From Escherichia coli (GTDB lineage Bacteria > Pseudomonadota > Gammaproteobacteria > Enterobacterales > Enterobacteriaceae), in assembly GCF_013315695.1 (NCBI RefSeq), contig NZ_CP054353.1: a stretch of 64,000 nt of DNA; one strand, 5' to 3'. This document shows positions 44,784-47,737 of the stretch, piece by piece; positions within the stretch are counted from its first letter, which is position 1, and each line of letters begins with the position of its first letter. A program made the position numbers and the translations under genes. Below the pieces are notes generated by a model that ran no database searches, was not told the DNA's origin, and saw nothing but the letters and a program-made list of their open reading frames with translations.

Positions 44784-46673
44784 TTACGCATCGCCACCGA
44801 AACGACGACGACCGGTAGAGTCATCACGACGCGGTGCGCGGCCTTCACGACGTTCGCCGCTAAAACGACGACCATCACTACGGCCACCTTCACGGCGTTC
44901 ACCGCTGAAGTTACGACCGCCTTCACGACGTTCGCCACCGAAACCACGACCACCGCCACGACGCTCACCGCCAGTATGCGGCTGTGCATCGCCCAGTAAC
45001 TGCATATTCATCGGCTTGTTGAGAATGCGAGTACGCGTAAAGTGTTGCAGCACTTCACCCGGCATACCTTTCGGCAGTTCGATGGTGGAGTGAGAAGCAA
45101 ACAGCTTGATGTTACCGATGTAACGGCTGCTGATGTCGCCTTCGTTAGCAATCGCACCAACGATATGACGAACTTCAACACCATCATCGCGGCCCACTTC
45201 AATGCGGTACAGCTGCATATCGCCAACATCACGACGTTCGCGACGCGGACGATCTTCACGGTCGCCACGCGGGCCACGGTCGTTACGATCGCGCGGACCA
45301 CGGTCATCACGGTCACGGAATTCACGTTTCGGACGCATCGGCGCATCTGGCGGAACAATCAGAGTACGTTCACCCTGTGCCATTTTCAGCAGTGCGGCGG
45401 CCAGAGTTTCGAGATCCAGCTCTTCACCTTCTGCCGTCGGCTGAATTTTGCTCAGCAGTGCACGGTATTGATCCAGATCGCTGCTTTCCAGCTGCTGCTG
45501 TACTTTAGCGGCGAATTTTTCCAGACGACGTTTGCCCAGCAGTTCTGCGTTCGGCAGTTCAACTTCCGGAATGGTCAGCTTCATGGTGCGTTCAATGTTA
45601 CGCAGCAGACGACGCTCACGGTTCTCAACGAACAGCAGCGCACGGCCAGCACGGCCCGCACGACCAGTACGACCGATACGGTGAACGTAAGACTCAGAAT
45701 CCATCGGGATATCGTAGTTAACTACCAGGCTGATACGCTCAACGTCCAGGCCACGGGCCGCAACGTCGGTCGCAATCAGGATGTCCAGACGACCATCTTT
45801 CAGTCGTTCCAGTGTCTGCTCACGCAGCGCCTGGTTCATGTCACCGTTCAGCGCGGCGCTGTTGTAGCCGTTACGCTCAAGAGCTTCTGCCACTTCCAGA
45901 GTCGCGTTTTTGGTACGAACGAAGATAATCGCCGCATCAAAATCTTCCGCTTCCAGGAAACGTACCAGTGCTTCGTTTTTACGCATACCCCAGACAGTCC
46001 AGTAGCTCTGGCTGATGTCAGGACGGGTAGTCACGCTGGACTGAATGCGCACTTCCTGCGGCTCTTTCATAAAGCGGCGGGTAATGCGACGAATCGCTTC
46101 CGGCATGGTTGCAGAGAACAGAGCGGTCTGATGACCTTCCGGGATCTGCGCCATAATAGTTTCAACGTCTTCGATGAAGCCCATGCGCAGCATTTCGTCA
46201 GCTTCATCCAGAACCAGACCGCTCAATTTAGAGAGGTCCAGAGTGCCACGTTTCAGGTGGTCCAGCAGACGGCCCGGAGTACCGACAACGATCTGCGGCC
46301 CCTGACGCAGGGCGCGTAATTGCACGTCATAACGTTGGCCGCCGTACAGGGCAACCACGTTTACGCCGCGCATGTGTTTAGAGAAATCCGTCATTGCTTC
46401 AGCAACCTGTACCGCCAGTTCGCGGGTCGGTGCCAGCACCAGAATCTGTGGTGCTTTCAGCTCAGGATCAAGATTCTGCAGCAGAGGTAAAGAGAATGCT
46501 GCAGTTTTTCCGCTCCCCGTCTGGGCCATACCCAGAACGTCGCGGCCATTCAGCAGATGTGGAATACACTCTGCCTGAATTGGAGATGGTTTTTCGTAAC
46601 CCAGATCGTTAAGGGCTTCAAGGATAGGAGCCTTCAGGCCCAGATCTGCAAAAGTGGTTTCGAATTCAGCCAT
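44784..46673 (-). CDS. deaD: cold-shock DEAD-box RNA helicase DeaD (CsdA)
   Basis: ORF 44784..46739; start taken at [21 protein letters not shown] (629 aa); DEAD and SAT motifs; RGG/ERR-rich C-terminal tail. Confidence 0.93.
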
Positions 46674-46746
46674 GTAGTACGTGTGCCTCAAAATTAATGG
46701 CGGCCAGTCTACATAACTCATCATGAAATTGATCAGCAATTTTCAT
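46666..46746 (-). CDS. yrbN: small protein YrbN (26 aa), overlapping the deaD start
   Basis: ATG-initiated 26-codon [29 protein letters not shown]; stop overlaps deaD start codon region by 8 nt; identity from recall of a 26-aa yrbN at this position. Confidence 0.5.
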
Positions 46747-46852
46747 TGAAAAGTGTGAACCGGCTCAAAGTAGGTGTATTAACGAACAACAACGCCCTCA
46801 CCCGTTAAGGTGATGGCAATCAAAAAAGATTACGGGCTGATGTGTACGTCAG

Positions 46853-47737
46853 CTATTGCTGGTCCGATTCTGCCAGGTCATCTTGGTCCTGGCCCAGGAG
46901 CGATAATTCCAACAATGCGTATCGGTGCTCAACAAAGTTATGAACGTTGTTGGCAACCGCCAGTTTGAACAGTGCCGTGGCGCTGTCCAAATCCCCCAGA
47001 CTTAGGTAGTACTTACCTAAATAGAAGTTGGTTTCACTGAGATGCTCAGCGAGCGAGGTGTTATCCGTTGCGTCCGCCTTGAGCCTTTCCATTAACGTTT
47101 GTTCGCTAATGTTGCCCAGGTAGAACTCGACAATGTTCCATCCCCACTGTTCCTTATCCGATTTTTCGAAGTGCTGTTTCAACACTTCTTTAGCCTGCTT
47201 CTCATCGAGCTTCTGCTCGGCGAGATAAAGCCACAGACTACGGAAAGGATCATTGGGATCGTCTTGATAAAACGCCAGCAGATCATCTTGCGCTAACTTG
47301 TCACGACCGCCGTAATATAATGCGATCCCGCGATTCAAGTGCGCGTAGTTGTAAGTTGGATCAAGCTCAAGTACAGAATCAAACGCTTCATAGGCAGCAT
47401 CAAAATTGCCTGCCTGCGTTAAATATATGCCTAAGTAATTGAATACTTCAGGCATATCCGGTCGGATTGCCAGCGCTTGCGAAAAATCGTTACGCGCTAA
47501 TGCCCTCAGACCGAGACTATCATACAACACTCCGCGCTCATATAAAAGCTGTGCGCGTTCGTCATCGGTTAAAGCCCGACTGGCAAGGATCTGTTCCATA
47601 CGTGCCAGAATCACTTCCTGCTGTAAAGTCGGTTGCAATGGTACCGCGAGGACTTCACTTTTACGCCAGGAAGTATTACTGCATCCTGCAAGCGTAAGTG
47701 CTGTCGCAACGAAACACCAGCGCAAAAAAGGCTTCAT
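46853..47737 (-). CDS. nlpI: TPR-repeat outer-membrane lipoprotein NlpI
   Basis: 294-aa [32 protein letters not shown]... (lipobox). Confidence 0.93.

Follow-up and report, generated by a model that had tools for sequence, protein, structure and literature searches.

Among described systems, the closest to the junction studied here is yrbN of Escherichia coli K-12 itself (gene b4685; WP_010723222.1; UniProt C1P618; family NF033440). A 2021 preprint already describes the 8-nt overlap of yrbN and deaD inside the 838-nt deaD leader; it credits the discovery of YrbN to Hemm et al. 2008, leaves the role of yrbN open, and contains reporter data that do not separate yrbN translation from deaD output. 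In the 64,000-nt stretch of E. coli DNA analysed here (contig NZ_CP054353.1; hereafter the window), the gene encodes the identical 26 residues, lies between nlpI and deaD as in K-12, and overlaps deaD by the same 8 nt. It shows no difference from K-12 yrbN: it is the same gene.

Gene pairs with overlapping stop and start codons, translated by termination-reinitiation, are the subject of a survey by Huber et al. (2019, Nat Commun). Such pairs are defined by the dependence of the downstream gene on translation of the upstream one, whereas we liken yrbN-deaD to them by sequence geometry: both ORFs lie on the same strand, the upstream stop falls a few nucleotides past the downstream start, and indels in threes keep this arrangement in 61 of 79 other species. 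In the window the two same-strand ORFs share the 8 nt ATGGCTGA. Two differences stand out. The upstream gene of a termination-reinitiation pair is full-size, whereas yrbN is a 26-codon leader ORF that lacks a Shine-Dalgarno (SD) sequence; and overlaps of 1 or 4 nt are commoner among such pairs, whereas yrbN and deaD share 8-11 nt or, in 18 species, are arranged with the stop 12-16 nt before the start.

A second relative is uof, a short ORF upstream of fur in E. coli, whose coupling to fur translation and control by sRNA were reportedly shown by experiment (the work is said to be that of Vecerek, Moll and Blasi in 2007). yrbN is likewise a short ORF at the 3'-terminal side of a leader; it stops where a regulator gene begins and is proposed to set translation of the main gene; the coupling of uof to fur is experimental, whereas that of yrbN to deaD is proposed from sequence comparison. 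We know of no sRNA that targets yrbN.

Leaders of cspA-type cold-shock mRNAs are treated as RNA thermosensors by Giuliodori et al. (2010). The deaD leader resembles them in being long, in belonging to a cold-shock gene and in having alternative pairings that could expose or hide the ribosome-binding site. It differs in containing yrbN, since the cspA leader has no upstream ORF, and in its predicted response to temperature: at 37 and at 15 °C the deaD SD and AUG have the same computed pairing. The cspA leader and the deaD leader have one 9-mer and one 8-mer in common (TGACGTACA and AGGCACAC). We rejected this cold-box and upstream-box likeness as evidence, the motifs being short, near chance expectation and only partly conserved.

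Below we set out why we read yrbN as an upstream ORF that is translated and that acts in cis, by coupling, on the initiation of deaD, a reading to which we give a probability of roughly 0.55.

Identity and position of the small ORF

An earlier note on this DNA, made from the letters alone, had described an ATG-started ORF of 26 codons whose TGA overlaps codons 2 and 3 of deaD by 8 nt, and had matched it to K-12 yrbN. Each of these points holds. The ORF listing and direct translation give the same peptide followed by a stop, and the strand is minus (Table 1). The reverse complement of the shared segment contains the yrbN TGA (46668-46666); the deaD ATG occupies 46673-46671, and the TGA takes its T from the end of deaD codon 2 and its GA from the beginning of codon 3. 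The surrounding 6 kb is overlapped by 87 ORFs that are 20 aa or longer, and a 26-codon ORF is by itself not unusual.

The minus-strand gene order in the window is pnp, nlpI, yrbN, deaD, mtr, exactly as annotated in RefSeq, with nlpI at 46853-47737 on the minus strand and 106 nt between nlpI and yrbN. The RefSeq yrbN CDS is 81 nt long, overlaps deaD by 8 nt and yields the same 26 residues on translation. A 601-nt query around the ORF matched 5,425 of 5,426 complete E. coli genomes at no less than 99% identity, and 'yrbN: protein YrbN' is annotated between nlpI and deaD in all E. coli records among the matches listed. One E. coli record places yrbN at 3255-3335 and deaD at 3328-5217 in locus coordinates, with 3328-3335 shared.

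Against the curated NCBIfam equivalog model NF033440 ('small_YrbN'), the peptide scored 76.3 bits (cutoff 33, E = 9.4e-22), and the alignment is full-length, residues 1-26 falling on profile positions 1-26 of 26. The ORF also has the place that characterizes the family, directly upstream of deaD, 3' of nlpI and on the same strand, and this position recurs in all 79 species that could be evaluated. HMM score, synteny and identical sequence establish it as a member of the YrbN family: the ORF is yrbN, an already annotated E. coli small-protein gene. Given its annotation, its curated family model and its published 8-nt overlap, nothing about it is new as a find.

Table 1 Features of the yrbN-deaD junction and its leader, in coordinates of the window.
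Feature	Position	Strand	Basis
yrbN CDS, 26 codons + TGA	46666..46746	minus	ORF, translation, RefSeq, NF033440
yrbN stop/deaD start overlap ATGGCTGA, 8 nt	46666..46673	minus	sequence; RefSeq coordinates; 8 or 11 nt kept in 61/79 other species
deaD (csdA) CDS, 629 codons + stop, annotated ATG	44784..46673	minus	open frame; RefSeq start
GAGG, sole SD-like element for deaD, in yrbN codons 20-21	46686..46689	minus	within near-invariant GAGGCAC
Near-invariant block UUUCAUGAUGAGUUAUGUAGACUGGCCGCC, yrbN codons 7-16, candidate pairing partner in both RNA models	46699..46728	minus	third-position entropy 0.31 vs 1.18 bits in deaD
Near-invariant block ACUUUGAGCCGGUUCACACUUUUCAAUGAAAA: 25 nt of non-coding leader, yrbN ATG and AAA second codon	46740..46771	minus	alignment
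Variable segment (codons 3-6 of yrbN), loop in RNA model A	46729..46739	minus	dN/dS 0.91; entropy 0.4-1.4 bits; no in-frame stops
Conserved leader hairpin UCACC-loop-GGUGA between nlpI and yrbN	46798..46813	minus	RNAalifold, 42 sequences; 2 pairs with compensatory changes in 6 sequences each
deaD promoter inside nlpI (TTTATA, 16 nt, TATGAT) for the -838 transcript	47519..47546	minus	scan; TSS ~47511

Conservation across Enterobacterales

A one-genome-per-species collection was scanned with the DeaD N-terminus and the 80 closest loci were retained. All belong to Enterobacterales, with DeaD identity of at least 88%, and they include Escherichia, Salmonella, Klebsiella, Serratia, Yersinia, Hafnia, Edwardsiella, Pantoea, Erwinia, Dickeya, Pectobacterium and Photorhabdus. 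One locus, with too little upstream DNA, was left out; the 79 other species and the window together make 80 sequences.

The earlier note had named conservation of the ORF in relatives as a check, and the same-frame ORF proved to be present throughout. In all 79 other species, an ATG-initiated ORF begins 67-73 nt upstream of the deaD ATG in the frame that reads the motif C-R-L-A-A. The yrbN ATG is invariant in 80 of 80 sequences, window included. It is this conservation that sets the yrbN ORF above chance.

Overlap with the deaD start, by 8 or 11 nt, is found in 61 of the 79 other species; counting the window, 49 of the 80 sequences have 8 nt and 13 have 11 nt. In the remaining 18 sequences, from Pantoea, Erwinia, Mixta, Tatumella, Rosenbergiella and Dickeya, the ORF closes with a UAA or UGA that precedes the deaD ATG by 12-16 nt, and it encodes 18-19 residues. 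All 37 distinct haplotypes have 48 nt between the yrbN ATG and the end of GCCGCC, while the spacer to the deaD ATG measures 19, 22 or 25 nt: indels come in threes and the UGA stays in frame. The sole exception is a spacer of 24 nt in Dickeya, where yrbN ends early. Finally, every sequence with the UGA overlap has T as the third base of deaD codon 2; in Dickeya this codon is GCA.

Initiation signals and predicted RNA structure

yrbN is essentially devoid of an SD sequence: its best anti-SD duplex, at -3.3 kcal/mol, ranks 30th among 37 neighbouring genes, and its start lies in the A/U-rich context UUUUCAAUGAAAAUU. For deaD the only SD is GAGG, whose anti-SD duplex of -5.6 kcal/mol has a middle rank among the 37 neighbouring genes. 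The spacing from GAGG to the deaD ATG is 12 nt in 57 of the 80 sequences and 9-10 nt in the rest; the spacing is longer than usually held optimal. The initiation signals of deaD are thus mediocre.

Folding of the region gave two mutually exclusive structures. In the minimum-free-energy (MFE) fold of the window sequence from -110 to +30 (structure B), the invariant block inside yrbN, AGUUAUGUAGACUGGCC, has two partners: the deaD SD, and CUACAUGGCU, which surrounds the AUG. Shuffled sequence folds with an equally good MFE (z = -0.23). Structure A, preferred by RNAalifold on 65 distinct sequences, is built from GCCGGUU-GACUGGC, CACUU-GAGUU and GAAA-UUUC pairs; the yrbN start is enclosed by this structure, and the variable codons form a loop. 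Forcing A on the window costs 2.3 kcal/mol at 37 °C, and A is the MFE fold in other species.

Structure A leaves 99.5% and structure B 94.8% of alignment cells paired, against 8-58% in slid-partner controls. Because the paired columns hardly vary, covariation speaks neither for nor against either structure: double-sided changes number 0 and 1, and column shuffles equal the observed values. A search of Rfam at a permissive E-value returned only chance matches, all at least 35 bits under the gathering scores.

The deaD AUG has a predicted pairing probability of 0.94 in the window, and of at least 0.80 in 65 of 65 distinct sequences (mean 0.96). Start-codon pairing of deaD ranks third of 37 neighbouring genes, the others averaging 0.47, while pairing over the whole deaD initiation region is ordinary (0.60 versus 0.50). 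Masking of the deaD ribosome-binding site by the block inside yrbN is a reasonable hypothesis from these predicted folds, with weak thermodynamic support.

Selection on the peptide and on the nucleotides

Across 32 distinct variants of the variable segment, the yrbN frame has 0 stop triplets; the two alternative frames have 16 and 12. By the Nei-Gojobori method, dN/dS comes to 0.47 when the nucleotides are read as yrbN, and to 1.12 (deaD frame) and 0.96 when they are read in the alternative frames. Judged by this substitution pattern, the yrbN frame carries a coding signature, which supports synthesis of the peptide indirectly. It is spread unevenly along the peptide: dN/dS is 0.19 for the core codons 7-16, which suggests that the amino-acid sequence itself is selected there, and 0.91 for codons 3-6, a value that is neutral for amino acids; the C-terminal 7-8 residues are absent in 18 species.

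A selected peptide core is what one would expect if YrbN acted chiefly in trans, as a small protein with a function of its own, perhaps as a partner of DeaD or in cold-shock ribosome biogenesis; the overlap with deaD would then be ordinary operon compaction and regulate nothing. The contrast between the core and the other frames, where dN/dS is near 1, argues for this, as do the retention of the core motif from Escherichia to Photorhabdus and the existence of a curated NCBIfam equivalog family. Chromosomally tagged YrbN has also reportedly been detected, by Hemm et al. in 2008. The neutral codons 3-6 and the missing C-terminus argue against it, however, since they leave only about ten constrained residues; these come without a Pfam domain or a solved relative (the peptide matched no Pfam family in a Pfam search, and a PDB sequence search gave a best E of 1.7). 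Nor can a trans-acting protein explain the near-invariant synonymous sites described below, or the 25 invariant non-coding nucleotides upstream of the ORF. We consider a mainly trans-acting YrbN possible rather than probable. It keeps substantial weight because coupling in cis would by itself leave the selection on the peptide core unexplained, and the two readings can coexist.

Synonymous sites in yrbN evolve 4-5 times more slowly than in deaD of the same genomes, with dS of 0.27 versus 1.13. Third-position entropy is 0.65 bits over yrbN as a whole and 0.31 in its core, compared with 1.18 in deaD. The conservation profile is blocky and without period 3, with near-invariant blocks at -98 to -67 and at -55 to -26 relative to the deaD start; the former is mostly non-coding leader upstream of the yrbN ATG. 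From the slow synonymous sites and the invariant non-coding flank it follows that the RNA sequence is constrained too: on this comparative evidence, the nucleotides are constrained in their own right, over and above a modest constraint on some ten peptide residues.

Taken to its limit, such constraint would make the ORF a mere passenger, the region being conserved solely as an RNA element of the deaD leader whose invariant nucleotides happen to bar stops. The blocky profile, the low dS, the equally invariant upstream block, the lack of an SD for yrbN and the fit of both pairing schemes to nearly all alignment cells are consistent with this. We nevertheless rejected a pure RNA-passenger model and hold it improbable. 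The yrbN frame is free of stops exactly in the variable segment, where the other frames are not; dN/dS falls below 1 in this frame only; and the ATG never changes while indels come in threes. NCBI curators, too, treat YrbN as a protein family.

Transcription of the deaD leader

Ojha and Jain mapped the deaD transcription start site (TSS) to -838 and lost ~90% of expression on mutating the TATGAT -10 hexamer. In the window, TTTATA-16 nt-TATGAT (47546-47519) is the only promoter-like site on the minus strand between 46500 and 47700; it predicts a TSS at ~47511, 838 nt from the deaD ATG. The small ORF thus lies inside a long deaD leader, as the earlier note had assumed: the leader begins inside nlpI, and yrbN forms its last 73 nt. 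The same minus-strand scan of 46500-47700 found no internal promoter nearer yrbN or deaD. RNA-seq of Erwinia amylovora showed joint induction of yrbN and of the DEAD-box helicase gene next to it, with log2 values of 3.65 and 3.84. Because of the TSS at -838, the lack of an internal promoter in the scanned interval and this co-induction, we conclude that yrbN shares one mRNA with deaD.

DeaD autoregulation, which acts through Rho and mRNA stability, needs the leader from -820 to -101 (Ojha and Jain). In the same work, a deaD-lacZ fusion that retained only the last 100 nt of the leader, yrbN included, was well expressed and barely regulated. yrbN is therefore not the autoregulatory element.

A short ORF in the long leader of a gene subject to premature, Rho-dependent termination invites comparison with classical attenuation, in which yrbN would be a leader peptide of the trpL, thrL or hisL type controlling a terminator ahead of deaD. 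We rejected this and regard it as very improbable: the peptide has no regulatory codon run, 46500-47700 holds no terminator-like site, and Rho-dependent autoregulation maps upstream of yrbN. Moreover, yrbN runs into deaD, so no terminator can follow it. A ribosome-arrest peptide of the SecM, TnaC or MifM type was rejected as well. Those peptides end in a conserved arrest motif set at a fixed distance from the stall site. The C-terminal third of YrbN differs between species in both sequence and length, and 18 species have none; its conserved motif is found 2-10 codons ahead of the stop.

Least credible of all is an N-terminal extension of DeaD through this region, as in an older annotation of 646 residues whose first residues, at -51, are MMSYVDWPP. 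In the window the open deaD frame reaches back as far as 46739 and offers ATG ATG at -51 and -48, but we rejected the extended start because deaD-frame dN/dS over the region is 1.12 and the upstream ATGs are not conserved (they become CAC GAC or CTC GAC in many genera), while TGA triplets stand in the deaD frame at -72 and often at -66, and RefSeq deaD begins MAEFE.

Proposed coupling of yrbN and deaD translation

We now propose a course of events for yrbN as an upstream ORF that is coupled to deaD and has its main role in cis. Ribosomes would enter at the A/U-rich yrbN start, which lacks an SD, and would read across the conserved block and over the deaD SD. Termination would follow at a UGA whose distance beyond the A of the deaD AUG is 5 nt or, in some species, 8 nt; Pantoea, Erwinia, their allies and Dickeya would instead use a UAA or UGA just ahead of the SD. 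Translation of yrbN would melt local structure around the deaD ribosome-binding site, and the ribosomes would be passed to the deaD AUG by termination-reinitiation, so that deaD translation would be coupled to that of yrbN. We infer both the control of deaD initiation by translation of yrbN and the action of the invariant blocks via RNA pairing. The earlier note had named translational coupling or an upstream regulatory ORF as typical for such an arrangement, and the comparative data are compatible with either role.

Such coupling would explain why the ATG is invariant, why the frame is strictly kept, why the stop holds its position, why deaD codon 2 has its T and why the deaD signals are mediocre. 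The stop-start geometry, retained in 61 of the 79 species and with spacer indels in multiples of three outside Dickeya, argues for it. So do the predicted pairing of the deaD AUG, whose MFE partner in the window is the invariant block inside yrbN, and the good expression of the 100-nt-leader fusion that includes yrbN.

Other observations weigh against cis coupling. The overlap is lost in 18 of the 79 species; the window fold is no more stable than shuffled sequence, deaD start-codon pairing is third rather than first among the neighbouring genes, and structures A and B lack covariation support, their paired columns being nearly constant. Ojha and Jain do not mention yrbN. Pure delivery of ribosomes, furthermore, requires no selection on amino acids, yet core dN/dS is low. 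The conserved peptide core may also matter, as nascent chain or as free peptide, which is compatible with coupling in cis.

A further reading, which we put forward tentatively, is that yrbN serves chiefly as the translated arm of a bistable RNA element that gates the deaD start, and only secondarily as a gene for a protein. GAGUUAUGUAGACUGGCC would pair either with the upstream GCCGGUU...CACUU, enclosing the yrbN start, or with the deaD SD and AUG, and ribosome entry on yrbN would decide whether the deaD start is exposed.

Comparison across Enterobacterales thus shows an ORF that is always present and carries a coding signature, with slowed synonymous change, a non-coding flank that is nearly invariant and a stop-start geometry kept in most species. 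What keeps the gene of interest is its candidacy as the translated arm of an RNA switch gating deaD translation. DeaD (CsdA) is a major cold-shock helicase under unusually elaborate control, with a long leader, Rho-dependent termination and autoregulation. If true, the bistable element would be a translational layer on deaD, apart from the autoregulation by Rho and mRNA stability that acts farther upstream, and it could be a site of action of cold shock or of the DeaD helicase itself.

Elements of the deaD leader and promoter

Five elements of the leader and promoter of deaD (csdA), the cold-shock RNA helicase gene, are collected in the table below. The most distal is a promoter-like site, TTTATA and TATGAT separated by 16 nt, placed where the deaD -838 promoter has been published. 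With this promoter lying inside nlpI, some 660 nt of the deaD leader are therefore nlpI coding sequence that is not translated.

Elements of the deaD leader and promoter, with counterparts in L083, the NZ_CP025859.1 locus that carries the cspA leader
Element	Position in the window	Strand	Location	Counterpart in L083
TTTATA, 16 nt, TATGAT (promoter-like)	47519-47546	minus	inside nlpI	
GGACCAGCAAUAGCUGACG	about 46846-46864	minus	spans nlpI stop codon (46853-46855)	
UGACGUACA	46843-46851	minus	just past nlpI stop	146-160
UCACC-loop-GGUGA (small hairpin)	46798-46813	minus	between nlpI stop and yrbN	
AGGCACAC	46681-46689	minus	deaD ribosome-binding region	268-281

Where nlpI ends, GGACCAGCAAUAGCUGACG shows no differences among all 42 distinct aligned sequences. 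The invariance takes in the third positions of the final nlpI codons as well as 8 nt past the stop, so this segment is under constraint beyond coding.

Further downstream, the small hairpin is kept across Enterobacterales in the sequence alignment, and two of its pairs show compensatory changes: A-U becomes G-C in 6 sequences, and C-G becomes U-A in 6. After the hairpin comes a G/U-rich run; the scan for intrinsic terminators did not score hairpin and run as a terminator. Its role could be attenuation, processing or stabilisation.

Within the conserved yrbN block, the third reading frame of the invariant sequence contains AUGUAG, a start codon followed immediately by a stop (46708-46713, minus strand). 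It has no SD ahead of it and has probably arisen by chance from the conserved sequence. As for yrbN in the literature, the legend of Figure 2 in PMC6001520 gives a cold-shock-induced small ORF as 'yrbN_PAIR_0', whereas the text of the same paper assigns cold induction to YnfR.

Motifs common to the deaD and cspA leaders

A naming issue also concerns the comparison locus. Its gene at 301-513, between yiaG and hokA, is called 'cspE' in the RefSeq record. This is where cspA lies, and the gene matches the cspA probe at 100% identity; the label looks like a slip of annotation. The record also has a small gene, ysaE, immediately downstream.

A 'cold box' has been described for cspA, cspB and csdA. 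The UGACGUACA that follows the nlpI stop brings this element to mind. The 5' end of the cspA leader carries UUUGACGUACAGACC, which shares this 9-mer with the deaD leader. In most other genera of the alignment UGACGAACA stands in its place, and one common 9-mer is about what chance would give between the two leaders.

The second motif, AGGCACAC, occurs in the cspA leader too (GCCGAAAGGCACAC), a short way ahead of the cspA SD. In the deaD alignment, only its GAGGCAC portion is invariant. Its presence in both leaders offers a weak lead towards a common cold-shock translation element.
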